The notes under the pieces were generated by a model, which was not told the origin of the DNA, searched no databases, and saw only the letters and a list, made by a program, of their open reading frames with translations. Shown here one piece after another: positions 1,375-21,369 of a stretch of 62,796 bases of DNA. Position 1 is the first letter of the stretch, and every line of letters starts with the position of its first letter. The translations under genes were made by a program, and so were the position numbers. Where the stretch lies: NCBI GenBank assembly GCA_944331715.1, contig CALVIP010000003.1:1-62796 (forward strand), in the 5' to 3' direction. Origin of the DNA: an uncultured Bacilli bacterium (GTDB lineage: Bacteria > Bacillota_I > Bacilli_A > RF39 > UBA660).

Positions 1375-1529
1375 ATGATTTTCTAGTAGAATAATTTATT
1401 ACTCGCGGGCCATCTACAAGCGAGATAATCTGCAGTGTAGAATAATTTATTACTCGCATCCATCTACAAGCGAGAACATCTCCGTAAAAAGAAAATCATC
1501 TTACATATATTATATGAAGTTTCCCTCAT
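1375..1529 (-). ncRNA. Array C: two pseudoknot repeats (orphan type III antitoxin-like RNA) with leader hairpin and closing stem
   Basis: Repeats at 1386-1425 and 1437-1475; minus strand CUCGC-UU-GUAGA-UGG(AU/CCC)-GCGAG-UAAUAAAUUAU-UCUAC; 10-bp inverted repeat 1375-1384/1490-1499; leader AUGAGG-GAAA-CUUCAU at 1514-1529. Confidence 0.65.
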
Positions 1530-1542
1530 CTAATACGTTTTA

Positions 1543-1572
1543 ATCATATCATAAATGGTACTAGTATGTAAA
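1543..1572 (-). promoter_or_regulatory. sigma-A-type promoter of array C
   Basis: TTTACA-18 nt-TATGAT with extended TG. Confidence 0.65.
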
Positions 1573-1587
1573 GATATTTTTTTATTT

Positions 1588-1764
1588 TCATTTTTTACTT
1601 TTTTTAAACTTATTTTTTGTTTTTTTAGGTTTCTCTTCATCAAAATCAATAATACCTTCCCATTCAAAAGGTTTAAGTCCTTTAACAGCTTCACCTGCAG
1701 AAATTATTGGACGCTTTTGTTGAAAAAAGCCTTCAGGAAACTTTGTTATGTTTTTCTTTGCCAT
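1588..1764 (-). CDS. 58-aa basic small protein (candidate antitoxin), below ORF-track cutoff
   Basis: MAKKNITKFPEGFFQQKRPIISAGEAVKGLKPFEWEGIIDFDEEKPKKTKNKFKKSKK; RBS GGGAGGG; own promoter TTGACT-17-TAATAT at 1802-1830. Confidence 0.7.
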   Translation of the reverse strand: MAKKNITKFPEGFFQQKRPIISAGEAVKGLKPFEWEGIIDFDEEKPKKTKNKFKKSKK

Positions 1765-1859
1765 ATAACATTCCCTCCCATATAGAATTTAATACAATTA
1801 TATATTATCATTAATGTAACAAGCAGTCAATATTTTTAAATACCATTAACAAAATTAAA

Positions 1860-2267
1860 TTATAAATTTGTAATAGTATCTTTATTTTTATTTTCAACAT
1901 TTAAACTTATAACTAATTTTATTAACTTATCTAACATATCATCACTTAAACGACCAATTACTTTATATTCTATTTTATCTTTCTTAAAGTAGAATAAATC
2001 GTCTGCCCTAATATAACCAGTTTTGTTGTTAACATTTCTACCTTTAATTTTATTAGGTACTATCTCTAGATTACTTTTAATTTTTAACTTTCTTTTCTTA
2101 TGGTTTTCACTATGAAAACTACACATAATATTAGAAATGAAATCATATGAGTAACTCTCTATTATCCCTGCCTCATCACTGATTACCACAAAAGAGTGTT
2201 TAGGAACAACAGTGCCATTCCTATCTTTAAATTCCTTAACAACAATTATGTCTCCAACTCTACACAT
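1860..2267 (-). CDS. PemK/MazF-fold-like protein (candidate toxin)
   Basis: Likely start MCRVGDIIVV (RBS AAGGAGG); GDI..V, HSFVVIS and GYIRADDL pattern resemble MazF/Kid fold; palindrome ACACAAG/CTTGTGT upstream at 2293-2314. Confidence 0.5.
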   Translation of the reverse strand: MCRVGDIIVVKEFKDRNGTVVPKHSFVVISDEAGIIESYSYDFISNIMCSFHSENHKKRKLKIKSNLEIVPNKIKGRNVNNKTGYIRADDLFYFKKDKIEYKVIGRLSDDMLDKLIKLVISLNVENKNKDTITNL

Positions 2268-2363
2268 AGATACCCTCCTTTCTTTAATATTCACACAAGA
2301 AGAAATACTTGTGTCTACTATATAATTAACGATATCTTTATTTTTGCTCTTTTAATTCAACAC

Positions 2364-2397
2364 AAAAAAACTAGAGTTTTTCCTCTAGTCTCTTTTC
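2364..2397 (-). terminator. Intrinsic terminator after pheT
   Basis: ACTAGAG...CTCTAGT hairpin with T-tract on minus strand. Confidence 0.7.
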
Positions 2398-2413
2398 TAT
2401 TCTTTTAACTTTA

Positions 2414-4780
2414 TTACTTATCTCTTAATTCTACATCTAAAGATGTTGTTACTTTCTTAATGATATTATCAAATACATTCATAACTTCTTCATCAGTTAA
2501 TGTTCTATTACTATCCATAAATGTTAGATTATAGGCAATAGACTTTTTATTATTATCAAGTTTTTCATAAACATCGAATACCTTAATGTCACTAAGTAAT
2601 CTTCCTCCTGCTTTTTTAATAACTGTCTCTACTTCACTTGATAGCATAGCCTTAGGAACAATGAATGCTACATCTTTAACGATTGTTGGATATTTTGATG
2701 CTTCTTTATATTTTAATGGTTTAACTTTAGTCATTAAAGCATTTAAAGATAACTCACAAACATATACTTCATCCTTACATACTTTAGGATGAACTCTACC
2801 CATAATACCTATTCTTTTACGGTCAAGTAAAATATCTGCAGAAATTCCTGGATGTAAGTCTGAGACATTACTTTTAACAAAACTATAACGGTTTTTAAAG
2901 CCTAGATAATCAAGAATACTTTCTACTATTCCTTTCATTAGATAGAAGTCTACTTTCATAGAGCCTTTCCAAGAATTAGTAATATAATTACCTTTCATTA
3001 AGAATGCAATTTTAGATTCCTCAGTATAAGCTTTATCATAAGTTTTAGCGATCTCATAGATATTTATATCTTCTACTTTACGAGCTTTATTATAATTATA
3101 AACATTCATTAATGATGGAATTAAACTTGTTCTAACAACACTCTTATCAATACTCATTGGATTAGGTAAAGTAATTCTTTCTTTTTCTTCATAATCAAAG
3201 CTAGAAGCCATTGAAGGTGATACTAAAGTATAAGTTTTAACTTCATTAAGTCCTAAACTTCTAAGACGTTTAGATATAGCTTTACGGTATTTAACATCTC
3301 CAACATACTCACCACGTTTTACTTCAATATTAGGAAGAGTTCCTTTTATATTTTGATAACCATAAAGTCTACCAATCTCTTCTGCTATATCATTAACATT
3401 AGAGTCAATATCTAGTCTTCTACTAGGAATAGTTACAGTAAATTTACCATCTTTAATAGTATATGGAAAGTCTAGTCTTTCTAACTCATGTTTCATATCT
3501 TTTTCATCTATTTTAAGTCCTAGCATTTTGTCTACTTCAATAGGATAGAATTCTACTACTTTAGGAGTCTTATCTAGTTTATCGTGCATAACAGTTCCAG
3601 AAAGAACAGTTGCATTAGCATATTTTTCTAATAAGTGGCAAGCTCTATCAAGGGCCATATTAGTATATTCGTAACTTAATCCTTTACCATATCTTATACT
3701 AGCTTCACTTCTAAGGTCTAAATGACTAGCAGTATATCTAATACTAACAGGATCAAAGATAGCTGCTTCTATCAAGATATTTTTAGTAGTAGGTTCTACT
3801 TCAGTATTAAGTCCTCCCATAACACCGGCAACACAAATAGCGTCACTACCATTACTAATAACAATATCACTATTTTTTAAAGTTCTTTCCTTACCATCTA
3901 AAGTAGTAATTAACTCATTATCTTTAGCATCTCTAACTAATATTTTATCACCTAGAGAGTCTTTATCAAAGAAATGAAGTGGTTGACCAAACTCTAACAT
4001 AACATAATTAGAAATATCAACAACATTGTTTATTGGTCTCATACCTACTGATAATAATCTTCTTTTAATAAAATCAGGTGACTCTTTAATTTCAACATTA
4101 GTAACCATCTTTGCTAAGTAATAAGGACATTTAGGTGTATCAACTTCTAGTTTAAAATGATTATTAACGTTATCTTTATCTTCTTTATAAGATAAATCAG
4201 GTAATTTTACTTTTCTATTTAATATTGCAGATATTTCATAAGCAAAACCAATATGATAGTAACAGTCATTATTACGATGTTTATGAATATCTAACTCATA
4301 TAAAGTATCTTCTAATCCTAAATATACAAGAGGGTCTTTTCCAACAGGAGCAGTTTCAGTTAATTCTTCAATACCTTTAGCATAAGTCTCATCAGTCTTC
4401 TCTTCAAGACCTAATTCATATAAAGCACAAATCATACCATTAGATTCTACTCCTCTAATCTTACTTGATTTGATAGCAAAGTCACCTGGAAGCACAGCAC
4501 CTGGTAATGCTACTATTACTTTAAGTCCTTCACGTACATTAGGAGCACCACAAACTATTTGTTGTAGTTCTTCTTTACCTATATCTACCTGACATAAATG
4601 TAAATGGTCACTATCTGGATGGTCTATACAACTAACAACTTTACCAATTACTAAATTATCTATTTTATTAGTAATAACTTTTTCAATATTAATACCAGAT
4701 TCTGTTATTTTAACTGCAAGCTTCTCTAAATCTTGATCACTTATATCAATATAATCTTTTACCCATTCTAAATTAATCAT
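2414..4780 (-). CDS. pheT: Phenylalanyl-tRNA synthetase beta subunit
   Basis: VCGAPNV tRNA-binding domain, RPINNVVDISNYVMLEFGQPLHFFD, FDX-ACB C-terminus; start refined to MINLEWV. Confidence 0.97.
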   Translation of the reverse strand: MINLEWVKDYIDISDQDLEKLAVKITESGINIEKVITNKIDNLVIGKVVSCIDHPDSDHLHLCQVDIGKEELQQIVCGAPNVREGLKVIVALPGAVLPGDFAIKSSKIRGVESNGMICALYELGLEEKTDETYAKGIEELTETAPVGKDPLVYLGLEDTLYELDIHKHRNNDCYYHIGFAYEISAILNRKVKLPDLSYKEDKDNVNNHFKLEVDTPKCPYYLAKMVTNVEIKESPDFIKRRLLSVGMRPINNVVDISNYVMLEFGQPLHFFDKDSLGDKILVRDAKDNELITTLDGKERTLKNSDIVISNGSDAICVAGVMGGLNTEVEPTTKNILIEAAIFDPVSIRYTASHLDLRSEASIRYGKGLSYEYTNMALDRACHLLEKYANATVLSGTVMHDKLDKTPKVVEFYPIEVDKMLGLKIDEKDMKHELERLDFPYTIKDGKFTVTIPSRRLDIDSNVNDIAEEIGRLYGYQNIKGTLPNIEVKRGEYVGDVKYRKAISKRLRSLGLNEVKTYTLVSPSMASSFDYEEKERITLPNPMSIDKSVVRTSLIPSLMNVYNYNKARKVEDINIYEIAKTYDKAYTEESKIAFLMKGNYITNSWKGSMKVDFYLMKGIVESILDYLGFKNRYSFVKSNVSDLHPGISADILLDRKRIGIMGRVHPKVCKDEVYVCELSLNALMTKVKPLKYKEASKYPTIVKDVAFIVPKAMLSSEVETVIKKAGGRLLSDIKVFDVYEKLDNNKKSIAYNLTFMDSNRTLTDEEVMNVFDNIIKKVTTSLDVELRDK

Positions 4781-5822
4781 TACTACTAATCTCCCCTCTA
4801 TCAAAATTATTAACTTCTCTTAAGTCTGTATTATAGAAAACTCTTAAGTCATTAATACCATATTTAAGCATAGCAACTCTCTCTGCTCCAAAACCAAAGG
4901 CAAAACCACTCCAAACACTAGGATCAAAACCACTCATTCTAAGAACATCTGGATGAACTACTCCTGCTCCACAGATAGTAATAAATCCTGTATTTTTACA
5001 AATATTACAACCATCACCTTTACAATTAAAACAACTAATATCTACTTCAACTGATGGTTCTGTAAACTGATAATAACTTGGTCTTAATCTAACTTCAACA
5101 CTATCACCAAATAACTTTTTAAATACAACTTCAAAAGTACCTTTTAAGTCAGATAGTGATATATCTTTATCTACAAGTAATCCTTCTATTTGCATAAATT
5201 GATGAGAATGAGTCGCATCATCATCATCTCTTCTATAAGTCTTACCAGGACAAATAACTCTAACTGGTTTCTTACCTTCCGCTTTTAACATTGTCCTAAC
5301 TTGAACTGGTGAAGTTTGACTTCTAAGTAATATCTCTTCTCCTTCAATATAGAATGTATCTTGAGCATCTCTTGCAGGATGTCCTTTAGGTATATTTAAC
5401 ATCTCAAAGTTATATTTATCTTCCTCAACTTCAGGTCCATCAACTACATCATAACCCATAGACATAAAGATTTCTTCTACTTCTTCTATTAATTTCTCTA
5501 AGATATTAGGAGAACCTATACTAACTTTAGTAGAAGGTAAACTAATATCAATAGATTCACTTTCTAACTTTTTATTTAACTCATCAGTTTCAAGTTTCTC
5601 TTTCAATGCATTATACTTTTCATTAAAGTAAGTTCTTAGTGAATTAACTTCCATACCGAACTCTTTTTTCTTATCATTAGGAACATCTTTAATCTTACTA
5701 TTAAGTTCTGTAATAATACCTTTCTTACTTAAATATTTAATGTGTAGTTCATTAAGTTCTTTTAAGTCTTTAACACTTTCTAAATCTTTCTCAATTTCTT
5801 TTTTAATATCTTCTATATTCAT
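4773..5822 (-). CDS. pheS: Phenylalanyl-tRNA synthetase alpha subunit
   Basis: HPARDAQDTFY, LRSQTSPVQ, FTEPSVEVD, GFAFGFGAERVAML motifs. Confidence 0.98.
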   Translation of the reverse strand: MNIEDIKKEIEKDLESVKDLKELNELHIKYLSKKGIITELNSKIKDVPNDKKKEFGMEVNSLRTYFNEKYNALKEKLETDELNKKLESESIDISLPSTKVSIGSPNILEKLIEEVEEIFMSMGYDVVDGPEVEEDKYNFEMLNIPKGHPARDAQDTFYIEGEEILLRSQTSPVQVRTMLKAEGKKPVRVICPGKTYRRDDDDATHSHQFMQIEGLLVDKDISLSDLKGTFEVVFKKLFGDSVEVRLRPSYYQFTEPSVEVDISCFNCKGDGCNICKNTGFITICGAGVVHPDVLRMSGFDPSVWSGFAFGFGAERVAMLKYGINDLRVFYNTDLREVNNFDRGEISSND

Positions 5823-5823
5823 A

Positions 5824-6447
5824 TTAATACATCTCCTTTATCTTAATTAATCTTTTTATATGAGGAACATCTACATCTTTTTTAGGACTATAGTAAATTG
5901 TATTAAGTCCTGCATTCCTCGCTCCTACTATATCTTTATCATAATTATCTCCTATCATAACACATTTACTAGGTTTATAAGGACCACAAGCATGAAGAAA
6001 ACCTTCTTTACTAGGTTTCATATATTTTTCTGCTCCTATAATTTCTTTAAAGTATGAATCTAGTCCTAATTTCTTAAGCCTTCCTACTTGAGTATTAGTA
6101 AATGCATTTGAATATATTACATTCTCTATTCCTAATTCATTTAAATAATCAAGAACTTCTACTGCCCCAGGATGTATACATTCATTAACATTTATCATAT
6201 AATTAGCCCATTCATCTATTAACTCTGGACTTATATGAACCCCTGTGTTTATACTGAGAAAACCACTTAACATTTTTATGTCATATTTAGGATATCTTCT
6301 TTCATAAGCCCCAAGTAAACCAAACCATTTACCAATAAACTTTGTATAGTCTTCTTCACTTAAATTATCTTTAAATAACTTCTCTTCTATAGAAAAATCT
6401 CCATCTAAAATAGTACCATCAAGGTCCCAAATAAATCGTTTAATCAT
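5824..6447 (-). CDS. HAD-family hydrolase
   Basis: WDLDGT motif I, KP and GDNYDKD motifs. Confidence 0.9.
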   Translation of the reverse strand: MIKRFIWDLDGTILDGDFSIEEKLFKDNLSEEDYTKFIGKWFGLLGAYERRYPKYDIKMLSGFLSINTGVHISPELIDEWANYMINVNECIHPGAVEVLDYLNELGIENVIYSNAFTNTQVGRLKKLGLDSYFKEIIGAEKYMKPSKEGFLHACGPYKPSKCVMIGDNYDKDIVGARNAGLNTIYYSPKKDVDVPHIKRLIKIKEMY

Positions 6448-6461
6448 AACCTTCCTCCTAA

Positions 6462-6670
6462 AATAAAAAATAACTATAACTTAAGGGTGTTAAACTAACA
6501 CTGTACCACCTTAATTTATAGTTATTGTAACTATCTCATTAATCTTAACGCGAATTAACGCCTACAATTTTGTTATAGGAACTCTTAAGACGAATTCATA
6601 AACTATTCTTATCTATTTCCACCTACCATAGACTCTCTAAAAAAGAAATCATTTACTACTACTTCTTAAT
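6462..6670 (-). promoter_or_regulatory. T-box riboswitch (Phe)
   Basis: AGAGAG..GGUGGAAA stem I motifs, GAA-UUC specifier (UUC at 6592-6594), AAGGUGGUACAG T-box at 6501-6512, terminator with U-tract; upstream of HAD-pheS-pheT. Confidence 0.85.
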
Positions 6671-6727
6671 CACAGTCATTTCAAAAATTACTATACCATA
6701 TTTAAAAGTTAATTGTAAATAGAAAAT

Positions 6728-7258
6728 TTATTTTAATAAATCTGCAAGATACAATTCATCTTTATCATGTTTCTTCATATGTTTATATTTTTTAATATTA
6801 TCGACAAGTTTATTTATTCTTTTCCCACCATAATAATTTTCTAAAAACACATTAGATTGATTATATCTTACACCATCATATATAATATTTCTTTTAGCAA
6901 AATCCTTAGGACTTTCTTTACTTTTATTAAATTCATTTATTAAATTTTCATTTATTATAAGTAATATTTCCATTTCAGGTTTAGTACAAAACTTAAAAAT
7001 ATTCTCCCTTAAAACAATCTTCTTTAAATCTTTAGGTATCACTAACACATCTTTTTGAGTATCACCTATTCTATAAATAATAACGGAGTTATTATAATGT
7101 TTTAATTCAGTTTTAATTACTGGATTTTTAAGTTGCCTTACATTATATGGTCTTCTACCTATCAAATCATCCCTTGTAACTTTTAATTTATTGTTATCAA
7201 GTAACAAATTTATTAGTGTTTCTTCATTAGTGCCTTCACACATAATTAAATATTTCAT
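6728..7258 (-). CDS. TOPRIM/RloB-like protein, partner of the adjacent ATPase
   Basis: N-terminal LIMCEGTNE (TOPRIM glutamate motif), GDTQKD; abuts the ATPase gene. Confidence 0.55.
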   Translation of the reverse strand: MKYLIMCEGTNEETLINLLLDNNKLKVTRDDLIGRRPYNVRQLKNPVIKTELKHYNNSVIIYRIGDTQKDVLVIPKDLKKIVLRENIFKFCTKPEMEILLIINENLINEFNKSKESPKDFAKRNIIYDGVRYNQSNVFLENYYGGKRINKLVDNIKKYKHMKKHDKDELYLADLLK

Positions 7259-8416
7259 TTACATTAATTCCTTTTTAAAACTCATCAATGATTCATAATT
7301 AACATTTGTATCAAAGGCATTTGCATAAAATTTATTACTTTTTGATAATTCAGGTCTAAAATTATATTTCATATGCATATTTTCTAATGTTATATTTTTA
7401 TCGTATTTACTAATATAAATGTTATCATTTCTATTAAATAAATCTAAAAGTTCACAATAATGAGTAGTAAAAATTAAAGTAGCATTTTTCTTATTTACTG
7501 ATTTATCTTTATATAAATTAACTAAATTCTCTACAAGAGTTTTATGAAAATGATTTTCTATCTCATCAATTATAAGATCACACCCACTTTTAAGTGAAAA
7601 AACAACAAACGTAAATAAACAAAAACCTTTAGTAGTTCCGCTAGATAAAATAGCATACAACTCCTTTATTGAAACTTCTTTTGTTTTTCTATCTGAGTAA
7701 ACTATCTTAAATTTATTTTCATTGATCATTTCAATTGTTCCAAGATGTTCATCAAACATTTTTAAAATAGATGATATTATATCTAAATTATTATTTAATA
7801 ATTTATAAAGACTAAAAGCATTAACATAATTACGATATGCAAAATCATCACTTGGGCAATATAAACCTCTCATAGTAATATTTTTAAATAATGAATAAAT
7901 AATTGATGTGTCTTCAGGTAAATCTATATTATTAATAACTTCTTGATATTTTTCATATGCAAATAATTTATTTTCATTACAACCATATGTTTTTTGATAT
8001 TCTCTTTTGTACAATTTTTGATTTTTAAACAAAACTATTGTATCATCAAGTGAATTGCTATATAAATCTGTAACATATCTATATAAATAATTATCATGAT
8101 AAAAACAAATGTCTATATTTATAGGCTTATTGGTATATTTAAAAATATCTATTGAACTTTTTATTCTAAAATTAGAAAATATATCATAAATAATAGATAA
8201 CAATTCTACAGTCATTGTTTTCCCAGAAGCATTTTTACCAATTATTCCTACTGTTGTAAAAGTATATAATCCTTCAGCTATTTCATGAAGTTCAAATTCT
8301 TTATCATCAGAAGTCTTATTAGCTTTAGGTACAAAATCAATAGTAAAATTATCTTCACACAATTTAAAATTATTTGCAACTACTCTTAATAATTTCATTT
8401 CAAACCTCCATTTCAC
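7259..8416 (-). CDS. AAA_21/AbiEii-type ABC-like ATPase
   Basis: GKNASGKT Walker A, LSSGT signature, LIIDEIENHFH Walker B, FTTH H-loop; probable start 8398. Confidence 0.85.
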   Translation of the reverse strand: MKWRFEMKLLRVVANNFKLCEDNFTIDFVPKANKTSDDKEFELHEIAEGLYTFTTVGIIGKNASGKTMTVELLSIIYDIFSNFRIKSSIDIFKYTNKPINIDICFYHDNYLYRYVTDLYSNSLDDTIVLFKNQKLYKREYQKTYGCNENKLFAYEKYQEVINNIDLPEDTSIIYSLFKNITMRGLYCPSDDFAYRNYVNAFSLYKLLNNNLDIISSILKMFDEHLGTIEMINENKFKIVYSDRKTKEVSIKELYAILSSGTTKGFCLFTFVVFSLKSGCDLIIDEIENHFHKTLVENLVNLYKDKSVNKKNATLIFTTHYCELLDLFNRNDNIYISKYDKNITLENMHMKYNFRPELSKSNKFYANAFDTNVNYESLMSFKKELM

Positions 8417-8488
8417 AATTAATTATACCACATTTATTTAAAAAAATACATTTTATTTGTGATTTTCGGCATAAAACGTAAGAAAATA

Positions 8489-9043
8489 TCACTCTTTATT
8501 AAGTGAATACTTCTTTTCTAACTCTAAAACTTTCTCTCTTCTTTCATCCATTTCTACTAAATAGTTATAGTTATAATCTCCATCTAAATATTTGGTTAAA
8601 TTTCTAGCCATTAAATTATTCATATAATCATCATAATTATCAGTATAAACCTCTGCATTATATAACTGTTCTATTAAAACTTTTATATCATCAAGTTTTC
8701 TTGTATCATTTGTAATATCTAATCCTTCTAAAACTTTCTTATAATTATCAAAAGCTATTGTACCACTATCTAGTCCTAATAAAATCATTTTTCTAAGTTC
8801 TTTTTTTCTAGGAATAAATATACCTAAGGTACTTCTTACATATAAAGACCCTTTTATAGTAAAACTGTTCCATTCTTTTAAATTATTTATACTATCATAA
8901 ATATCAACACCTATTTGTTTTAACAACAAGTTATAACTATTAATAGAAAGATTACCATTTTTACTTGTCTCTTTATCAATAAACTTTTTCCTATCTTTCA
9001 TGATCTCTAAAGGATAATCAAACTTTTCTTTACCATTAATCAT
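8489..9043 (-). CDS. Hypothetical protein
   Basis: 184-aa ORF with RBS; no recognised motif. Confidence 0.7.
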   Translation of the reverse strand: MINGKEKFDYPLEIMKDRKKFIDKETSKNGNLSINSYNLLLKQIGVDIYDSINNLKEWNSFTIKGSLYVRSTLGIFIPRKKELRKMILLGLDSGTIAFDNYKKVLEGLDITNDTRKLDDIKVLIEQLYNAEVYTDNYDDYMNNLMARNLTKYLDGDYNYNYLVEMDERREKVLELEKKYSLNKE

Positions 9044-9088
9044 AAATACCCCTCTTTCTAATAAAGCATATTATATACGAAAATTTAT

Positions 9089-10027
9089 CTAAAGTAAAGT
9101 AATAGTCTTTATATTAAAATTATTATTTGTATGAGTACTAAATATTAATTGTCCCTTACTATTATCAAAAGCATTTATAATTTCTTCAATTATTCTATTA
9201 TCTAAAAAACTATCTATATCATCTATTATTAGGGCTTTCTCTTCTTCAGAGGCTTTTAAAATAAAAGGTATTATGGCAAAGACTAATCTATTACTAGAAG
9301 ATTCATCTCCATAATCTATTATATAGCTCTTATTATTTAAATTATGCTTAAATTTAGTAGTATAACCAACTTCTTTTCCTAACATAATGCTTTTAACATT
9401 ATAATCTATAATATTAACATTAATCTTTTTATAGAAGTCTAAAACATAAGGTTTTAACTTATTATTAGTATCTCTACTATATAGATTAAATGATGGTTCA
9501 ATAAGACTTTTTACATCTAAACAAATCCCTATAGTTGATGTTAAGAAGGTATATACTTCGTTCAAATCATCTTTAGCATAGCTTAAAAAGAGTCTATTAT
9601 CTAAAACAAGTTTAGATAGTTTTTTTAATCTTTTATCATTAAAGGTATAACTTTTATTTACTCTTTCAAAGATAATATTTTCTTCTTCAAAATCATAATA
9701 ATATAAATATTCTTTACTTACTTGTTTTTTATTAATGGTAAAGCCATAAATATATTTAGTGTTATTTTTAAGAAAAGTTATCTTAAAACTACTAGGTTTA
9801 TCATTATACATAAAAGTATTCAAGTAATTATTATTGTTTTTAAGTATTAAACTAACAGAATTAAGTATCTTTAATAAGTTAGTTTTACCACTATTAAAGC
9901 CTCCATTTATATTAACAATATTACTATCCATATCAAAAGTTATTTTATCCTTAAATGAGAAAAGATTCTCTACTTCTACTTCTAAAATCATAACTCCTCC
10001 CAGAAAATTAAAATAGTGCCTTAGCAC
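9089..10027 (-). CDS. Second, divergent AAA_21-type ATPase
   Basis: GGFNSGKT Walker A, ESSSN degenerate signature, IIDDID Walker B, FSTH; probable start 9991 (RBS GGAGGAG). Confidence 0.75.
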   Translation of the reverse strand: MLRHYFNFLGGVMILEVEVENLFSFKDKITFDMDSNIVNINGGFNSGKTNLLKILNSVSLILKNNNNYLNTFMYNDKPSSFKITFLKNNTKYIYGFTINKKQVSKEYLYYYDFEEENIIFERVNKSYTFNDKRLKKLSKLVLDNRLFLSYAKDDLNEVYTFLTSTIGICLDVKSLIEPSFNLYSRDTNNKLKPYVLDFYKKINVNIIDYNVKSIMLGKEVGYTTKFKHNLNNKSYIIDYGDESSSNRLVFAIIPFILKASEEEKALIIDDIDSFLDNRIIEEIINAFDNSKGQLIFSTHTNNNFNIKTITLL

Positions 10028-10029
10028 TA

Positions 10030-10711: not shown

Positions 10712-10727
10712 TTTTACTACTTCTTTA

Positions 10728-12367: not shown

Positions 12368-12481
12368 TTAAATGCCCCCCCCCCAGGTAACAAGTTGTAA
12401 ACTTGAGGTTTTAGAAAAATGACGAATTAATTTCCCCCAGAATTGACAATTTATTTTACCCTGATAAATTAAATTAGCCAT
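12368..12481 (-). CDS. 37-aa ORF ending in a G10 tract
   Basis: RBS AAGAAAGGAAG; MANLIYQGKINCQFWGKLIRHFSKTSSLQLVTWGGGI*; C10 on plus strand at 12375-12384. Confidence 0.45.
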   Translation of the reverse strand: MANLIYQGKINCQFWGKLIRHFSKTSSLQLVTWGGGI

Positions 12482-12568
12482 ATCTACTTCTTCCTTTCTT
12501 TATCTTTGTTAACTTAATAGTACCATAATCTTCAAAGACAATCAATAACGATTTTACTTACTTTACAC

Positions 12569-13570: not shown

Positions 13571-14093
13571 AATACTTTCCTTTCTTGAAAAGATTATTCT
13601 TACTATATTTATTCATAATCTTCTCTTCTAAATATCTATTAATATTAGTAATCTTTAAATCTTTAACTGCTAGAGGGTCTACAAATATTTTAGTAATATT
13701 ACCTTTATAGCCATATCCCATATCTGTAATAAATTGATCTCCTATGATAGCAATGTTTTTAGACTCTAAATTATATTTAGATTTAATTTTCTTAAGTGTT
13801 CTAATAGTAGGTTTAAGTGCAAAGGGATAGGAATCTACTCCTAAATCTTCACTAAACTTAGACACTCGTTTTTTAGGACTATTAGAAACTATAACTACTA
13901 AAAAATCTTTCTTTAATTTAGTAATTAACTCTTTAACTTTATCTTCTACCTTTACACTGTCTATTAAAGCTAGAGTATTATCTAAATCAAAGATTAAACA
14001 TTTAATATCTTTTTTCTTTAACTTACTATAGTTAATGTCAAAGATATTTTTCTTATATATATCTGGTAAATATTTCATAGTCTTACTCCTCAT
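13563..14093 (-). CDS. yqeG: YqeG HAD IIIA phosphatase
   Basis: FDLDNTL, IGDQFITD; synteny with yqeH. Confidence 0.9.
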   Translation of the reverse strand: MRSKTMKYLPDIYKKNIFDINYSKLKKKDIKCLIFDLDNTLALIDSVKVEDKVKELITKLKKDFLVVIVSNSPKKRVSKFSEDLGVDSYPFALKPTIRTLKKIKSKYNLESKNIAIIGDQFITDMGYGYKGNITKIFVDPLAVKDLKITNINRYLEEKIMNKYSKNNLFKKGKYYE

Positions 14094-14125
14094 ATATTTA
14101 GTATATACTAAAATTTAATATATTT

Positions 14126-15535
14126 CTAGTTATTTAATTTCTGTCTTATAGGCATAGTATCTATATCTAAAGAATCAAAACTATAACCATTACTTAAACA
14201 ATAGTCAATTATATTACTTAAAGCATCTCTTGTATAAGTCTTAGTATCATGCATTAAGATAACATTATATTTATCATGAGATATACTATTAACTACACTA
14301 TTATATAGTTTATGAGGATTAGTTGCAAAAGAAGCATCTCCACTATCAACATTCCAATCATAGTATTGATAATCTTTATTTAAGACTTCTTTAGTTAAAG
14401 TACTCATAATACCTTCGCTATATTTTTTAGAAATGGTATTACTAGAACCCCCTGGGAATCTAATTAATTTAGAATCAACTCCTGTTATATCATAAATTCT
14501 CTTATGAACTTGTTCTAAATCATTAAAGTAGTTATCTCTTGATGCATAAATAATATCATATTTATGAGATGCAGTATGAATACCAATAGAATGTCCTTCA
14601 TCTACAATTCTCTTAATTAAAGAATCATTTCCATTCATCGTTACAAAGAATGTCGCTTTAACTCCTTTTTCTTTTAAGATATCTAAAATTACATCAGTAG
14701 TTCCATCTCTTGGACCATCATCAAATGTAAGATAGATAGTATTAGTTTTTAATGGTTCTCTTACTTTAACATTTCTTACTATTTTACTTTTATTATTACT
14801 ACTATCACTAACTTCATAGGTTACTCTATAATCACCTACTTTAGTATTATCTATATCATTAGTTATTTTAATATTAGAAGTTAAATCACTATCACAGTTA
14901 TCACTAATAGTTACATTATCTTCTATATAAGGCTCATTTAAGTTTAAAAAGATATTATCATCTCCATTTAGTGTTATAGAAGGAGAATCTACATCTTTAG
15001 CAATTAACTTTCTTACAACTTCATTCTTATTACCACTACTATCAAAAACTATATAAATAATTTTATCTTTCTCTTTTTTTACTTTAACTTTATCAGTAAT
15101 ATCTTTATCTACATTATCATAAGCGGTATATCCAAGTTCTTTATACTCCCCATTAGGACAATAGTATTCTTTTAGATTACCATTTAGTTTAATTTTAGGT
15201 TTCTCTATATCTTTTACACTTATTTCTTTAGAGATATGATAAGTAAATATATTATCTTTATAAGTATAATTTATATTATAATCTCTATTTTTATTAGTAT
15301 TTATCTTATCAAGTGGTTTAACTATTCTTTTACTTCCAAACATATTACTTATAGTTATACCTTTATCAGCATAAGAAGAATTAATATTAACTATTTCTTT
15401 TAGGGGAGCATTTAAAGTTATTCTAGGAACAAATAAAAGTGCAAAAGTAAAAAGGACAAGTACTAAAGTAACACTAATATTTATAAAATACTCACTTTTA
15501 GAAACCCTTCTTTTTTTAATCTTCTTCTTAAGCAT
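14126..15535 (-). CDS. Membrane-anchored polysaccharide deacetylase with Ig-like repeats
   Basis: N-terminal TM; repeated D.EKP.I.LNG/AYDNVD units; LTFDDGP, HTASH, RFPGG, LMHD. Confidence 0.88.
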   Translation of the reverse strand: MLKKKIKKRRVSKSEYFINISVTLVLVLFTFALLFVPRITLNAPLKEIVNINSSYADKGITISNMFGSKRIVKPLDKINTNKNRDYNINYTYKDNIFTYHISKEISVKDIEKPKIKLNGNLKEYYCPNGEYKELGYTAYDNVDKDITDKVKVKKEKDKIIYIVFDSSGNKNEVVRKLIAKDVDSPSITLNGDDNIFLNLNEPYIEDNVTISDNCDSDLTSNIKITNDIDNTKVGDYRVTYEVSDSSNNKSKIVRNVKVREPLKTNTIYLTFDDGPRDGTTDVILDILKEKGVKATFFVTMNGNDSLIKRIVDEGHSIGIHTASHKYDIIYASRDNYFNDLEQVHKRIYDITGVDSKLIRFPGGSSNTISKKYSEGIMSTLTKEVLNKDYQYYDWNVDSGDASFATNPHKLYNSVVNSISHDKYNVILMHDTKTYTRDALSNIIDYCLSNGYSFDSLDIDTMPIRQKLNN

Positions 15536-15595
15536 AATCTCAACTCCTAATATTAGTATAGCAAGTTCTATAATTTTTACAATACACTAATATTT

Positions 15596-16315
15596 TTAAC
15601 TGAAGTCTATATCATTATACTTATTATTCTTAATAAATTCTCTAAGTATTTTAGTTAAGGCTCTTTTTTCAATTCGGGATACATAACTTCTAGATATATT
15701 TAATTTATCGGCAATTTGTTTTTGAGTCCATAAATCATTCCCTTCTAAACCATATCTTTTAACAATAATTTCTCTTTCTCTTTTAGTTAAGACTTTTAAG
15801 TAAGAGTTAAGTAGTTTTACATTATCTTTTAAGTTAATTTCTTCTATAAAATCAGGACGTGGGGCTTTTATAACATCAAGGATTGATATTTCATTACCTT
15901 CTTTATCAAAACCAACGGGTTCATTTAAAGAGAGATTTTTATTATTTTTGTTGTTTGCACGAAAGTACATTAATATTTCATTTTGAATACATTTAGCACA
16001 ATAAGTAGTCAAACGATTTCCTTTATTAGGAACAAAGGTATCTACTCCTTTAATAAGACCAATAGTACCAACACTAATAAGGTCATCTTGATCAACGTTT
16101 TTATAATCGAACTTTTTAACAATATGAGCGACTAATCTAAGGTTATGTTCTATTAAACTATTACGTGCTTCTTTATCTCCCTCCACCATCTTTTTAATGC
16201 ATTTTTCTTCCTCATCTTTTGATAGTGGTTCTTTAAAGACTTGATTAGAATAACTGGCTGTAAAAGTAAAGAAGCCTCTTAGACTATCAAATAAATTAAA
16301 CAACATTTTTATCAC
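15596..16315 (-). CDS. sigK: Sporulation sigma factor SigK (uninterrupted)
   Basis: Hydrophobic pro-sequence, IEHNLRLVAHIVKKF, DDLISVGTIGLIKG, ISRSYVSRIEKRAL. Confidence 0.88.
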   Translation of the reverse strand: MIKMLFNLFDSLRGFFTFTASYSNQVFKEPLSKDEEEKCIKKMVEGDKEARNSLIEHNLRLVAHIVKKFDYKNVDQDDLISVGTIGLIKGVDTFVPNKGNRLTTYCAKCIQNEILMYFRANNKNNKNLSLNEPVGFDKEGNEISILDVIKAPRPDFIEEINLKDNVKLLNSYLKVLTKREREIIVKRYGLEGNDLWTQKQIADKLNISRSYVSRIEKRALTKILREFIKNNKYNDIDFS

Positions 16316-16358
16316 CTAATAAATAATATGTCAAAAAAAAGAAGTTAGAATATTAGGT

Positions 16359-17435
16359 CTAACTCTTTGTGTATTTTTTAGTATTTGCCATTTCCCAATA
16401 ATAATCTGTTCTATCATAATCACCTATATTTTGGTATAACTTAGCAAGGCAAAATAAAGCTTCACTATCATCATTTATTTCTCTTTCTTTATCATCTACT
16501 ACAATATTACCTTTTATATTAGTAAAGTTTATGATTCTTGTATAATAACTTATAGTATTAGTTCTATCATCAACTTTTTTAAATACTTCTGCTAAAGCTT
16601 TTTCTGTTTTTAAAAGGATATCTTTTTTGTGTAAATTATCATATTTATCAATTAATAGGTGTTCAGCACGTTTATAAGATTCAATTGCCTTTGGATAATC
16701 TTCTTTTTTTTCATAACATAAGCCTAAAGCATAATGATAATCAGCGAAATTAAAATCTGCTTCAATGGACTTTTTTAAATATAATACTACCTCTTCATAG
16801 TTGTTATATCTATAAGAAGAAGCAATTTTATAATATAAATAACTCATATATTTAGCTTTATCAATATTATCAGTGTCTAAATTATCTTTAGCACTTTTAT
16901 AACAATAAAGGGCATCATCAAGAAATCTTATATCTTGAGAAACTATATTACCTTGTAGTATTTTAGCATTGGCAATATTTTTTTCCATTATCTTTAAATA
17001 TAATATTATTATTTATATCAGCGATAAGTTTGCTTGTATCAAAAGCAAGATCATAATTATTTTTCTTGCAAATACTATTAACTAACATAGCAAGATAATT
17101 TCTTGCATAGGTGTAATAGCGATTAATACCATCAATATTTTTTAATGCTTTAATTAATCTTGCACATGTTTTTTCAACATCAACATAATATAAAGCATTT
17201 GCTATCAAAGTATATAGATTATTATTAACATAGATATTAATCAATTTCTTTAATGATTGAACAGATTCTCTAAATTATTATTAACAGTTATAACTTCATC
17301 ATATTCAGTATAACTTTCTTTATAATACGGATCACAATCACTTACAAATAAACCTACAAAACGAAAATAGCTTGCTAGATATTTTCTTGTAAATTTATTA
17401 GTATCGTCTGTTATTATTTTTATGTCATTAATCAT
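16359..17435 (-). pseudogene. TPR-repeat gene split into three ORFs by two frameshifts
   Basis: ORFs 17250-17435 and 16359-16988 share a frame; middle ORF 16963-17244 is shifted; joins near 17275 and at A7 run 16978-16984; TPR-like helices (YHYALGLCYEKKEDYPKAIESY). Confidence 0.7.
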
Positions 17436-17450
17436 ATTTATCCCCCTATT

Positions 17451-17969
17451 TTATATATCTCTAAATAAATAGACATTTTCGTTTAAAGTTTGGTTAGGAA
17501 GAGTAAAGTCTCTACTACCTACTAATTCTCCACCCATATGTTTATAGAAACTATTGGCATTAGTATTAAGAGCAAGACAGCCAACAATCATACTATTAAA
17601 TCCCATTTTCTTAACTTCATCACAAGCTTTTTCAAAGAGTGTTCTACCATATCCTCTATGTTTAACTTCATCAAGTAAATATAAGGCCTGTAATTCTCCT
17701 ATATCTTTATAATTAGAATCTTTTGATTTACACACTCTAAGAACTCCTACATATTTATCATCTGCTTTTAAAAGAAATGATTTATCAAATTCTTTATTTA
17801 TATCTTTTTTCTTTCGTTCTATAGCTATATTTATTTCAGAATCTGTACCGATTAATTCTAAAAACTCTGCATTAACTATTCCTTTATAAGTCTCTTGCCA
17901 AGATTTAGTATTTATTTTAACATAATCACTTACATTGTTAGTATTTAACTCTTCTATAATACAATTCAC
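17451..17969 (-). CDS. GNAT acetyltransferase
   Basis: LYLLDEVKHRGYG acetyl-CoA motif, ANSFYKHMGG. Confidence 0.88.
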   Translation of the reverse strand: MNCIIEELNTNNVSDYVKINTKSWQETYKGIVNAEFLELIGTDSEINIAIERKKKDINKEFDKSFLLKADDKYVGVLRVCKSKDSNYKDIGELQALYLLDEVKHRGYGRTLFEKACDEVKKMGFNSMIVGCLALNTNANSFYKHMGGELVGSRDFTLPNQTLNENVYLFRDI

Positions 17970-19714
17970 TATAGTTTAACCTCTTCTTTTAATAGCGTAA
18001 TAAATTCATCTATTGTAACTGTACTAGTATCTTTTTCACCATGTCTTCTATAACTAATAGTATTATCAGTCTTTTCTTTATCTCCAAGTATTAGTGTATA
18101 GTTAATTTTTCTAGTTTGAGCTTCTCTTAATCTATAACCTAATTTTTCATTACGGTTATCTAACTCTACTCTAATACCATTTTTCTTTAACTCTTCATAT
18201 ACTTTACTAGCATATTCTCCTTGATATTCACTAGATACTGGTATAACTACTGCCTGAACAGGATTTAACCATAAAGGAAGATTACCTTTAGTCTCTTCAA
18301 GTAGGAAAGCAATAAATCTATCAAGAGAACCTAGTATTGCTCTATGAATAACTACTGGTCTAGCTTTATTTCCATCTTTATCAATATAGGTTAGTTCAAA
18401 TCTTTCAGGTAGTTGATAATCTAATTGTACAGTTGAAAGTGTTACATCATGACCAATAGCACTTTTAACTTGAACATCAAGTTTTGGTCCATAGAAAGCT
18501 GCTTCTCCTTCTGCTTCATAGAAGTCTGCTCCTATTTCTTCTAGAACTTCTCTTAGTTCTTGTTCACTTCTTTCCCATAGCTCATCATTACCAAAGTATT
18601 TATCTTTATTATTCTTATCTCTTAAAGAAAGTCTAAAACTATAATCTTTAAAGCCAAAGTCTTTATAAACATCAAGTATTAAATCAATAACACCTTTAAA
18701 CTCTTCTTTAATTTGTTCATTAGTACAGAAGATATGAGAATCATTTTGAGTAAAGGCTCTTGTTCTTTCAATACCACATAATGCTCCAGAAGCTTCATAT
18801 CTAAAGTCATTTGCAATCTCGGCAATACGTAGTGGTAAATCTCTATATGAATGAAGTGAATTTTGATACATCATCATATGATGAGGACAATTCATTGGTC
18901 TTAACACATATGCTTCATTATCAAGTTCCATAGCAGGAAACATATCATCTTTATAGTGATCCCAGTGTCCACTAGTTTTATATAAATCTACACTGCCAAG
19001 TGAAGGTGTCATAACATGTTTATAACCATGTTTTATTTCTTTATCAGTAATATAATCAACTAGTGTACGTCTAACAAAGAAACCATTTGGTAACCACATA
19101 GGAAGTCCTTTACCTACTAAATCAGAAAACATAAATATACCAAGTTCTTTACCTAATTTACGATGATCTCTTTCTCTAGCTTCCTCTAGCATTTCTAAAT
19201 GTTTATTTAAATCTTCTTCAGTCTCATAACAAACTCCATAAATACGTTGTAACATTTTATTTTTAGAGTCTCCTTTAAAGTATGCACCACTTACTCTAAG
19301 TAATTTAAAGTGTCTTAACTCTTTAGTAGATTCTACATGAGGTCCACGACAAAGATCAGTAAAGTCTCCTTGAGTATAGCATGTAATTACTTCATCATCA
19401 CTCATATTATTAATTAAATCTATTTTATAAGGGTCATCTTTAAATTTATCAAGTGCTTCTTCTCTAGTTAATTCATGACGAATGATTTTTTTATTACCTT
19501 TAGCAATTTTTTTCATTTCTTTTTCTATTACAGGTAAATCATCATCTGTTAAAGTCTTATCTCCTAAATCAATATCATAATAGAATCCATCTTCTATTAC
19601 AGGTCCTACCCAGAACTTTGCCTCCGGATATAACTTCTTAACTGCTTCTGCTAGTAAATGCGCACAAGAATGATTAAGTGGCATTAATTTTTCACTTTCT
19701 TTAATATTTATCAT
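17969..19714 (-). CDS. thrS: Threonyl-tRNA synthetase (short form without N-terminal TGS domain)
   Basis: NHSCAHLLA, DLCRGPH, LRPMNCPHH, GEAAFYGPK, PVVIHRA. Confidence 0.97.
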   Translation of the reverse strand: MINIKESEKLMPLNHSCAHLLAEAVKKLYPEAKFWVGPVIEDGFYYDIDLGDKTLTDDDLPVIEKEMKKIAKGNKKIIRHELTREEALDKFKDDPYKIDLINNMSDDEVITCYTQGDFTDLCRGPHVESTKELRHFKLLRVSGAYFKGDSKNKMLQRIYGVCYETEEDLNKHLEMLEEARERDHRKLGKELGIFMFSDLVGKGLPMWLPNGFFVRRTLVDYITDKEIKHGYKHVMTPSLGSVDLYKTSGHWDHYKDDMFPAMELDNEAYVLRPMNCPHHMMMYQNSLHSYRDLPLRIAEIANDFRYEASGALCGIERTRAFTQNDSHIFCTNEQIKEEFKGVIDLILDVYKDFGFKDYSFRLSLRDKNNKDKYFGNDELWERSEQELREVLEEIGADFYEAEGEAAFYGPKLDVQVKSAIGHDVTLSTVQLDYQLPERFELTYIDKDGNKARPVVIHRAILGSLDRFIAFLLEETKGNLPLWLNPVQAVVIPVSSEYQGEYASKVYEELKKNGIRVELDNRNEKLGYRLREAQTRKINYTLILGDKEKTDNTISYRRHGEKDTSTVTIDEFITLLKEEVKL

Positions 19715-19716
19715 AT

Positions 19717-20211
19717 TTATCTTCTCCTTCCATAATAATAATTTCTTTTACTTATAGTTTTTTGTCTATTAACTTTTTCAGTAGGTACTAATTCATCAAG
19801 GTATATTTCACTTTCTATGTTCCCTAACAACTCTACTTCTCCTGTAATTTCATCATAACCATAACCTAAACTTTCCAAAATTTCTTTTCTTCTTTTCTCT
19901 CTTTCATTAGCACTTAAATTACTACTTAAAATAGCATTTTTATTAAGTGCTAAACAATTACTATAACATCTAATATTCTTATCATCATCTCTAACATAAA
20001 TATATTTATCAGAGTCATCTTTAGATGCTATATCTAATGAAACAGCAGTAGGAGGAGTAACTCCTCTATTAATTAAATATATTGGCATATCATTATGATG
20101 AAACCTCGTTCTTTTACGATGATGACTTTTAACACCATACCAATTTTTCATAAATACGTGAATATTTTCGCATTCTTTTGAACTCTTGTAGTATCCCTTT
20201 TTCTTACCCAT
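19717..20211 (-). CDS. Basic hypothetical protein between the Thr T-box and thrS
   Basis: Start refined to MGKKKG (RBS AGGAG), because the track start lies inside the T-box terminator. Confidence 0.7.
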   Translation of the reverse strand: MGKKKGYYKSSKECENIHVFMKNWYGVKSHHRKRTRFHHNDMPIYLINRGVTPPTAVSLDIASKDDSDKYIYVRDDDKNIRCYSNCLALNKNAILSSNLSANEREKRRKEILESLGYGYDEITGEVELLGNIESEIYLDELVPTEKVNRQKTISKRNYYYGRRR

Positions 20212-20239
20212 ATTTTTTTCTCCTAACTTAACCTTATAT

Positions 20240-20450
20240 AATAAAAAGGATGATATCACTAGGAGTGCCTTACACTACACGATACCATCCTTTTTTAACT
20301 TAATTTAGATAACGGCACTAACCGGAATTACTTTGCATAACTCTACTCATTAAGGTAGTAATAAAAGAGCTTTTCTTAACTTTCACCAACCGTTAAGTCT
20401 CTAAGATTAAAAGGATTCTTTTACCAAGTCCCTAACTAATAACGTATTTA
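20240..20450 (-). promoter_or_regulatory. T-box riboswitch (Thr)
   Basis: AGAGA..GGUGAAA motifs, ACU/ACC specifier at 20354-20359, GGAUGGUAUCGUG T-box at 20278-20290, terminator; TTGACA promoter at 20481-20486. Confidence 0.8.
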
Positions 20451-20537
20451 CAACTATTATTTTACTACAAATTATAAAGATGTCAAATTATTTTTATAAT
20501 AAAACATATTTTCTATTAAAAAATGTATCTTGTTCGA

Positions 20538-20566
20538 TTGACACGATATAATACATATGTTATTCT
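20538..20566 (+). promoter_or_regulatory. Promoter of type I TA locus 1 toxin mRNA
   Basis: TTGACA-17-TATTCT. Confidence 0.7.
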
Positions 20567-20637
20567 TTAAGCAGGAATACCTAGTATGGGTGTTTTGCCT
20601 CTTTCAAAACTCTAATATTCAGGGGGAGAAAGGGGAA

Positions 20638-20712
20638 ATGTCTATGAGTAAGAAAGATTTTCTAATTGCATCATTAGTAATAATAATTATACTTCTGATT
20701 ATTTATAGATAG
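20638..20712 (+). CDS. Type I toxin-like hydrophobic peptide, locus 1 (22-24 aa)
   Basis: (MS)MSKKDFLIASLVIIIILLIIYR*; RBS AAAGGGGA; flanked by AGGAATACCTAGT (20573-20585) and ACTAGGTATTCCT (20789-20801). Confidence 0.75.
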   Translation: MSMSKKDFLIASLVIIIILLIIYR

Positions 20713-20865
20713 TAAAACGCCCTATTACAACTTTGTAATTAGGGTGTCTATCAAAAAACTTTTTTTTGAGGTAACACCCAAATGGCAAACTAGGTATTCC
20801 TCTTTTTTATAATATGTAAATTCTCTTTACATATTCATATTATCATAAATAATTAATTTTATCAA
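20713..20865 (-). ncRNA. Convergent antisense antitoxin RNA and its promoter, locus 1
   Basis: TTGATA-17-TAATAT (20837-20865), 5' hairpin AATATGTAAA/TTTACATATT, ends at hairpin CACCCTAATTACAAAGTTGTAATAGGGCG-TTTT. Confidence 0.65.
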
Positions 20866-20899
20866 GATATTAATCGTTGCAAAAAAGTATCATTTAATC

Positions 20900-21108
20900 T
20901 TTGCAACAGTATAAACATATGATATACTTTAAATGCAGTAAATGAGTGACATCTCATATAAAGATAAAAGAGGTTCACACTACTCCTTTAAAAAGTGTAT
21001 ATAAAGAGGTTGACGTTACTCCTAAAAAACGTATAAAGGTTCACACTATTCCTATAAAAGTGCATAAAAGTATAAGGGCGATACCTCTATTGGTATTACC
21101 CTATTTTT
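20900..21108 (+). ncRNA. Array A: promoter, leader, three degenerate ToxI-like pseudoknot repeats and terminator; no toxin gene follows
   Basis: TTTGCA-17-TATACT; leader ATGAGTGACATCTCAT (20942-20957); repeats 20964-21000, 21001-21032, 21033-21063; terminator 21075-21108. Confidence 0.7.
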
Positions 21109-21150
21109 ATTATTAAAAAGTAGAAATCATCAAAAAAGTAACATTTTTTC

Positions 21151-21369
21151 TTTACAACAATATAATCTTATGATATACTTTAGATGTATTAAATGAGTGA
21201 TACCTCATATAATAACAAAAGTCGGAATTCCCTTGCCACAGTAGGGAGCTAACAAAAGTCGGAATTCCCTTGCCATAGTAGGGAGCTAACAAAAGTCGGA
21301 ATTCCCTTGCCACAGTAGGGAGCTAAAAAACATGGGCGATTTTCATTTAGAAAGTCGTCCTTTTCTTTT
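21151..21369 (+). ncRNA. toxI: Array B: ToxI/AbiQ-type antitoxin RNA, 3 x 37-nt repeats, with promoter, leader and terminator
   Basis: TTTACA-17-TATACT; leader ATGAGTGATACCTCAT (21193-21208); AACAAAAGTCGGAATTCCCTTGCCA(C/T)AGTAGGGAGCT at 21214, 21251, 21288; terminator 21334-21369; toxN directly downstream. Confidence 0.9.

Follow-up and report, generated by a model that had tools for sequence, protein, structure and literature searches.

The 62,796-nt contig CALVIP010000003.1 of an uncultured Bacilli bacterium (assembly GCA_944331715.1; the whole contig is the window referred to below) carries three short repeat arrays, here called A, B and C, each preceded by a similar promoter and 5′ hairpin and each composed of units able to form H-type pseudoknots, as do the RNA antitoxins of toxin-antitoxin (TA) systems belonging to type III. 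Only array B is followed by a toxin gene, toxN. Comparison with related genomes supports well the identification of arrays A and C as antitoxins of ToxN and CptN proteins that sister species keep at the same sites, and the two arrays are probably toxin-less ToxI and CptI copies derived from a common cassette and left by toxin loss and flank recombination. These sequences suggest that an antidote made of RNA can persist after its toxin is gone.

The window is contig C3 of an assembly (G000 below) of 1.16 Mb with 27% G+C, 108 contigs and a completeness of 87.6%. Other G numbers denote related genomes and L numbers loci within them; these relatives are represented by metagenome-assembled genomes (MAGs), with the sole exception of the closed genome G071. 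Four ToxN genes, on contigs C3, C47, C16 and C1, were returned by a tblastn search of G000, together with a single CptN gene on C19. All five are located behind arrays of their own, which differ from one another, and in this 87.6% complete assembly none of the five falls into the classes cognate to arrays A and C. The suggestion of the initial annotation that the chromosome may hold antidotes to toxins it does not encode is thus supported for ToxN-A, the toxin associated with array A in relatives, and for the CptN cognate to array C. A two-unit orphan CptI array with its own terminator is also present in G071, where its S2 pairing class is unlike that of the three cptIN loci of that genome; since G071 is closed, orphan status is not an assembly artefact.

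An orphan CptI array upstream of a dehydrogenase gene

Array C lies near the left end of the window and comprises the following elements:

1386-1474, minus strand: array C, two CptI-type pseudoknot units with a period of 50; orphan, no CptN downstream
1474-1437, minus strand: unit 1
1424-1386, minus strand: unit 2
Pairings within array C, minus strand: S1 CTCGC/GCGAG and S2 GTAGA/TCTAC, with the A-rich loop TAATAAATTAT
1375-1500, minus strand: closing inverted repeat around the array, with arms GATGATTTTC (1500-1491) and GAAAATCAT (1383-1375)

The array has the layout of CptI, namely about two repeats of 40-50 nt, an H-type pseudoknot and a long A-rich loop. Its repeats are 92.5% identical over 40 nt when the module is compared with itself by BLAST, and were not called by Tandem Repeats Finder (TRF) at score 30. 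The arms of the surrounding inverted repeat pair in RNAfold, and the same repeat is found in the orphan copies of other species. No CptN is encoded directly behind array C in the window, where the next gene codes for a short-chain dehydrogenase (SDR).

A BLAST search of module C against 60 relatives retrieved matches in most genomes of the genus. In G018, G021, G033 and G035 (loci L008-L011) a promoter, leader and two-unit array 85-90% identical to those of the window are followed by a terminator and an intact 162-aa open reading frame (ORF), and in G020 and G025 (L007 and L012) the array C homologue precedes a broken copy of that ORF. The 162-aa ORF has no match in Pfam or PADLOC; it aligns over its whole length with the CptN protein of PDB 4RMO (E = 1.3e-15), and array C is on this basis a CptI. 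A toxin-less copy of the array is situated just upstream of the SDR promoter in G000, G019, G023, G031, G015 and G006, while G018, G021 and G030 possess a complete cptIN locus and, some 1 kb downstream of it, an additional copy with no toxin. Six genomes have an intact CptN of the cognate class (at least 73% identity) and four have one disrupted by stops or frameshifts; in eight genomes that keep only the orphan array it is absent.

The pseudoknot is well conserved across the genus: among 25 distinct CptI units, 97.6% of cells are paired, versus 31-53% in slid controls. Compensatory changes were detected in four of the five S2 pairs, and six of ten pairs change on both sides. The units fall into the S2 classes GTAGA/TCTAC, CCGGA/TCCGG, CTGGG/CCCAG, CTGGA/TCCAG and GTGGT/ACCAT; these matched variants with covarying S2 make the specificity rules of the antitoxin directly testable.

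An orphan ToxI array next to a complete toxIN locus

Arrays A and B lie in tandem on the plus strand, at a site flanked in this and related genomes by thrS and a deacetylase gene:

20967-21062, plus strand: array A, three ToxI-type units that differ from one another, about 33-36 nt x 2.7 with 73% matches (TRF); orphan; S1 AGG/CCT in the units
20977-20980 with 20995-20998, plus strand: S2 of unit 1, ACAC/GTGT
21013-21016 with 21029-21032, plus strand: S2 of unit 2, ACGT/ACGT
Unit 3, plus strand: S2 CAC/GTG
21076-21109, plus strand: terminator of module A, GGGCGATACC...GGTATTACCC and then a run of T residues (read directly and folded)
21213-21330, plus strand: array B (ToxI), 37 nt x 3.2, 96% matches (TRF)
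21334-21370, plus strand: intrinsic terminator between toxI-B and toxN-B
21391-21891, plus strand: toxN-B, 166 aa; Pfam PF13958 (ToxN_toxin) 2.6e-41, PADLOC AbiQ 1.8e-37

Array B and the ORF at 21391-21891 represent a ToxIN locus in the usual sense, with a toxin of the ToxN/AbiQ family and, directly upstream of it, repeats enclosed between promoter and terminator. These two matches agree with the earlier statement that array B alone is accompanied by toxN, and no toxN was found in the window other than behind this array. A second toxIN array of G000 (C47:497-620) is 87% identical to array B and lacks the leader hairpin; the toxin behind it is 73% identical to ToxN-B, its gene running off the contig end. 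Judging from these identities, the two systems could cross-talk.

In array A, too, short units are repeated in tandem, all of them able to fold into an H-type pseudoknot. Its S2 pairing covaries between units (ACAC/GUGU versus ACGU/ACGU, a double compensatory change read directly from the sequence). The terminator of module A was missed by the consensus terminator scan owing to a stem mismatch; it is also found upstream of toxN-A in G006 and G019. There is no ToxN directly behind array A in the window, the next element being the promoter of module B.

Two modules are present at the thrS-deacetylase site of three relatives (G006, G019 and G071). One A unit and a terminator of its own make up the first module, and the second consists of the B leader, one or two B units, three A units, a terminator and ToxN-A, arranged as one transcript. 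The A units of this second module are 96% identical to array A of G000, and ToxN-A is a 179-aa protein of the PF13958 family (Pfam 2.1e-46). Because the same units precede a PF13958 protein in these three species, array A is a ToxI by descent and an orphan by context; because the toxin-linked copies of the relatives match its non-identical units, their divergence is the native state of the array rather than decay. Array A would accordingly be the antitoxin of a second ToxN allele, ToxN-A. The initial annotation had put forward arrays A and C as candidate type III antitoxins, and both candidacies are strengthened by their relatives: 96%-identical units before a 179-aa ToxN at the same site in three species in the one case, an 85-90% identical array before CptN in sister species in the other.

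Other genomes display further states of this site. That of G015 is like G000, whereas G010 and G072 possess hybrid B+A arrays with no toxin; toxN-A of G036 has an early TGA stop, and toxN-B of G025 lacks a start codon. In the hybrid arrays at L015 (G006), L016 (G019), L047 (G071) and L107 (G072) one or two B units are joined, in frame of the repeat, to three A units within one transcript, behind which ToxN-A is encoded except in G072.

Probable cassette exchange and toxin loss

At the thrS-deacetylase site, the DNA of G000 and that of G006 show about 90% identity as far as the arrays; the identity is high again, at 95.7%, starting 75 nt ahead of the toxN stop codon (in the window, from about 21817 up to that codon). 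At the protein level, ToxN-B and ToxN-A share their last 23 residues bar one (I in ToxN-B, L in ToxN-A), the remainder being about 45% identical. This pattern appears to be the signature of cassette exchange between shared flanks. A mobile or duplicated cassette with interchangeable repeats had been postulated for the window; the interchange is well illustrated by the hybrid B+A arrays of G006, G019 and G071 and by the 3′ homology of the toxN genes, whereas nothing shows mobility.

The cassette is envisaged as a sigma-A promoter with extended -10 box, a stem-loop of about 29 nt, pseudoknot repeats, an intrinsic terminator and a toxin gene. Paralogous and allelic loci would share a left flank (promoter and leader) and a right flank (the terminator, or the last 75 nt of toxN), so that homologous recombination could swap, fuse or delete the DNA in between. 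Deletion of the toxin with the antidote kept would be harmless, loss of the antidote while a stable toxin persists would be harmful, and arrays equipped with promoters and structurally intact would for this reason tend to stay behind. Recombination between the flanks, coupled with this asymmetry of loss, is the most parsimonious mechanism. Such orphans would presumably still be transcribed and remain competent antidotes, neutralising a re-entering cognate toxin until deletion erodes them. An anti-addiction role of the orphans is plausible. Solitary antidotes are familiar from type II systems, in which orphan antitoxins (for example, chromosomal ccd versus the plasmid copy) can cancel post-segregational killing by a homologous toxin; the antidotes there are proteins, whereas the orphans described here are RNA.

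In these small-genome gut Bacilli toxins thus seem to be often lost or swapped while the RNA antidotes stay, and the cognate toxins, broken toxins and hybrid arrays of sister species provide a natural series of RNA-protein TA loss and exchange. A further step would be to regard the orphans as selected RNA genes of anti-addiction or immunity, directed against toxins that circulate at the hot spots of sister species, with the leader as a stability or handling signal common to type I and type III antitoxins. We hold this stronger proposal only tentatively and think it rather unlikely; if it were true, a toxin cassette could be lost, replaced or re-acquired without cell death.

A 5′ stem-loop shared by the three modules

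The promoters and leaders of the three modules are as follows:

20900-20928, plus strand: promoter of module A, TTTGCA-17-TATACT, TG extension
20934-20965, plus strand: leader stem-loop of module A, core 20942-20957; model R1 36.3 bits, E 4.2e-4
21151-21179, plus strand: promoter of module B, TTTACA-17-TATACT, TG extension
21185-21216, plus strand: leader stem-loop of module B, core 21193-21208; model R1 43.6 bits, E 7.9e-6
1543-1572, minus strand: promoter of module C, TTTACA-18-TATGAT, TG extension; conserved in 13 species
1506-1537, minus strand: leader stem-loop of module C, core ATGAGG-GAAA-CTTCAT at 1514-1529 with UAUUA/UAAUA flanks; model R1 47.7 bits, E 8.6e-7

The initial annotation had recognised three shared modules of promoter and 16-nt hairpin. 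Their positions are correct; the length of the hairpin had been underestimated, as RNAfold extends the stem-loop to about 29 nt, (G)UAUUA-N-AUGAG...CUCAU-A-UAAUA. The leader hairpin follows the -10 box at a spacing of about 13 nt, and transcription would begin at or beside the base of its stem. In 34 distinct copies, pair 14-21 is AU in 18, GU in 10 and GC in 6, and pair 15-20 is GC in 20 and AU in 7. The covariation of these two pairs, with G-U in 10 copies, favours an RNA helix over a DNA palindrome. Given its position at the start of the transcript, the leader may serve as a 5′-terminal stabiliser of the antitoxin RNA, an idea which builds on the general biology of 5′ stem-loops and of the enzymes RNase J1 and RNase Y of Firmicutes.

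The strict hairpin motif of the initial annotation has four matches in the 1.16-Mb assembly, with about 0.1 expected (our own estimate from base composition): modules A, B and C, and a fourth in coding DNA on contig C2. A covariance model (R1), built from the 34 distinct copies, recovers exactly four leaders in G000, namely the three loci of the window and the toxIN locus on C16, whose leader has a GAAA loop and was missed by the strict motif.

Distribution of the leader and of toxin-less arrays

Model R1 identified 141 leader copies in 40 of the 53 genomes of the genus; in the order as a whole, copies were found in 20 of 127 genera, all in one family. In public genomes, pattern matches to the leader motif come almost only from MAGs of uncultured gut Bacilli, with rabbit, chicken, goat and Hadza among the host samples and Ca. 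Coprosoma, Ca. Faecisoma, CAG:822 and CAG:605 among the taxa. The flanks of all 141 copies were retrieved and classified; toxins at the arrays were detected with five reference proteins, so that an unrelated toxin family would score as no toxin in these counts:

CptI arrays behind the leader: 49 (20 with intact toxin, 4 with broken toxin, 24 with none, 1 at a contig end)
Degenerate CptI-like units behind the leader: 3 (all without toxin)
ToxI arrays behind the leader: 26 (15 with intact toxin, 2 with broken toxin, 9 with none)
Type I-like small RNA (sRNA) modules behind the leader: 61
Other: 2

The leader therefore heads 78 type III arrays, 75 of them clear and three being the degenerate toxin-less units. 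Among the clear ones, 33 (44%) have no toxin, six have a broken one, 35 an intact one, and one is cut by a contig end. Repeated loss of toxins with persistence of the RNAs, one of the two outcomes envisaged in the initial annotation, is supported across the genus by the 33 toxin-less and six broken cases.

The link of the leader to type III systems, as first drawn from the window, stands in part. None of the copies is found directly before a protein gene, and 61 of the 141 head type I-like sRNAs; rather than a signature confined to type III, the leader is thus a family-wide 5′ module of antitoxin RNAs. In 39 of these 61 modules a hydrophobic ORF of 22-29 aa with a Shine-Dalgarno sequence is present on the opposite strand. 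Type I-like modules also occur in head-to-tail stacks of two to four, about 370-420 nt apart, for example at L028 (G012), L025 (G013) and L033 (G032). As a feature common to antitoxin RNAs of the type I-like and type III kinds, the 5′ stem-loop offers a handle with which non-coding antitoxins can be sought independently of a protein anchor.

Decay, function and alternative explanations

The most serious alternative to toxin loss with retention of a working antidote is that arrays A and C are pure relics, i.e. non-functional leftovers of deleted toxIN and cptIN loci that drift towards loss without affecting the cell and look intact only because they are young or because DNA is exchanged between species. 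Several observations weigh in this direction and against our preferred explanation. In an alignment of the SDR site from 13 species, the orphan has two units in five and one unit in six, is truncated in G006 and is deleted in G072, a pattern such as neutral erosion would give. Half of the orphan CptI arrays have a single unit (12 with two units, 12 with one), whereas all 20 toxin-linked arrays have two. In the one-unit A module of G006, G019 and G071, GCG replaces the needed GTG and S2 is broken. The intergenic DNA flanking the SDR-site array is about as conserved as the array itself, so that conservation of the array alone is no proof of selection. A point against our preferred explanation only is that, G000 being 87.6% complete, a cognate toxin could sit in unassembled DNA. 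Against pure relics, the SDR-site orphan is maintained in at least 12 species with promoter and leader kept, and all substitutions in its stems across the 13 species preserve pairing, four of them giving wobble pairs and one being a compensatory CTCAC/GTGAG pair, by which selection on this orphan is suggested. At least one fully paired pseudoknot is kept in 23 of 24 orphan CptI arrays, compared with 19 of 20 toxin-linked ones, and in an earlier screen, which used a stricter pattern for the units, 22 of the 24 orphans had a recognisable -10 box upstream. Extra copies are, moreover, retained beside a complete system in G018, G021 and G030. A single CptI repeat is fully antitoxic in Eubacterium rectale (PMC4627078), and the one-unit orphans could for this reason still work. 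On balance we find it doubtful that the arrays are nothing but relics.

Two other explanations appear weaker still. The orphans might act as a back-up supply that cross-neutralises resident paralogues, with the CptN of C19 as the target of array C and one of the four ToxN proteins as that of array A. The C19 CptN is 53% identical to the cognate class and has an array that shares S1 and the A-rich loop with array C, and the resemblance of arrays B and C47 (87%) makes some cross-talk between paralogues conceivable; however, the S2 helices of the classes differ by compensatory changes (GTAGA/TCTAC versus CTGGA/TCCAG), as expected of insulated specificities, array A is unlike any array of the resident ToxN loci, and every resident toxin already has an array of its own. 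We consider this improbable. A role as cis-regulatory RNAs, with riboswitch-like or leader-type control of the SDR gene by array C and of the toxIN-B operon by array A, is the least probable of all. It might be read from the position of array C, which in most species precedes the SDR gene by about 100 nt, and from an impression that the array A units superficially resemble a small H-type pseudoknot aptamer. Yet no Rfam family was matched by any array at gathering score, and relaxing the threshold to E up to 10 gave only noise; a separate promoter for the SDR gene lies past the array, ahead of the start codon (TTTACT-17-TATACT, 1337-1309, minus strand); the same orphan precedes obg in G008 and the L21 operon in G021; module A has its own terminator and module B its own promoter; and elsewhere these repeats form genuine arrays linked to toxins.

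An origin from phages was considered and rejected: exact-pattern scans of IMG/VR with the array C and array A units gave no matches, and the arrays sit among housekeeping genes, in contexts that are chromosomal and syntenic. A scan of IMG/VR with the leader pattern yielded two matches, both in GC-rich coding DNA.

Relation to known type III systems

Among described systems, array C is closest to CptIN of E. rectale (PDB 4RMO; PMC3401426; PMC4627078), with which it shares two repeats of about 45-50 nt, the H-type pseudoknot and a long A-rich loop that crosses S1; its homologues in relatives lie, as in CptIN, between promoter and terminator directly upstream of a CptN homologue. The A-minor loop of E. 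rectale CptI (PMC4627078) is paralleled by the long A-rich loop of the genus units, UAAUAAAUUAU. Unlike CptIN, array C of the window stands without CptN before an unrelated dehydrogenase gene, and it possesses a 5′ stem-loop leader, a feature undescribed for CptIN. Array B with its ToxN is a canonical member of the ToxIN/AbiQ group (ToxIN_Pa of Pectobacterium, ToxIN_Bt of Bacillus thuringiensis, AbiQ of Lactococcus). Array A has the same layout and precedes a 179-aa PF13958 toxin in relatives; it differs in being toxin-less here, in its three non-identical units with covarying S2, and in the fusion of A and B units into one array in relatives.

Among precedents for arrays without a toxin, the pseudo-ToxI of phage PhiTE escape mutants comes closest; in it, ToxI-like repeats can neutralise a toxin encoded elsewhere (PMC5086642). 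Those repeats are phage-borne and arose by selection to escape abortive infection, whereas the orphans described here are chromosomal and syntenic and derive from resident loci. Neither orphan arrays nor an RNA counterpart of anti-addiction antitoxins is mentioned in the type III review, the 2012 survey (PMC3401426) or the 2025 tenpIN survey (PMC12283969). Surveys of type III systems begin at the toxin protein and then seek repeats upstream (Blower 2012, PMC3401426; 2025 tenpIN, PMC12283969), and because of this starting point toxin-less arrays are invisible to them.

Neighbouring genes and other shared modules

Between pheT and a 58-aa ORF lies a 144-aa ORF (1860-2294, minus strand; 135 aa from an internal ATG), which matches PHROG 21589, of unknown function (E = 1.1e-32), and shows a weak MazF-like match (7e-4) and no match in Pfam, NCBIfam or PADLOC. 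Relatives have a 167-179-aa ORF and cptIN in this slot, and the 144-aa ORF may be an alternative cassette at the hot spot between pheT and the 58-aa ORF. Lying upstream of array C, it was considered as a toxin in reversed gene order and rejected as a partner of the array, since G023 and G015 retain the array but lack this ORF. The 58-aa ORF itself (1588-1764, minus strand) is lysine-rich (MAKKNITKFPEGFFQQKRPIISAGEAVKGLKPFEWEG...) and has its own promoter and no family match; most genomes of the genus conserve it immediately behind cptIN-C or behind the 135-aa ORF.

A type I-like TA locus (20557-20870) is located immediately upstream of module A. Its plus-strand ORF ends in MSKKDFLIASLVIIIILLIIYR (stop at 20712) and belongs to the same peptide family as MSKKDLLISLLVVIIMLLIGLLYK, which is found opposite leader-bearing sRNAs in relatives. 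A convergent minus-strand promoter (TTGATA-17-TAATAT, 20865-20837) would give an RNA starting with a variant 5′ hairpin, ATGTAAA-GAGA-TTTACAT (20832-20814, minus strand), followed by AGGAATACCTAG; this hairpin was not detected by model R1.

The near-identical stretch AAATTTATATATTGACGAACATA, with a TTGACG -35-like box, lies between array terminator and toxin gene at the toxIN locus on C1 of G000 (about 48,950-48,990) and the cptIN locus on C19 (about 4,075-4,100), as well as at the cptIN loci L240 and L241 of G071. It looks like a toxin-proximal promoter common to both toxin families. Elsewhere in the window, an ordinary T-box leader (Rfam RF00230, 109.7 bits) is present at 6480-6682 on the minus strand, and an open-ended ORF at the contig start (1-246, …HWSVENKLHFHLDFTFREDANTTKNKDA…) resembles, by impression, the C-terminal end of a transposase.

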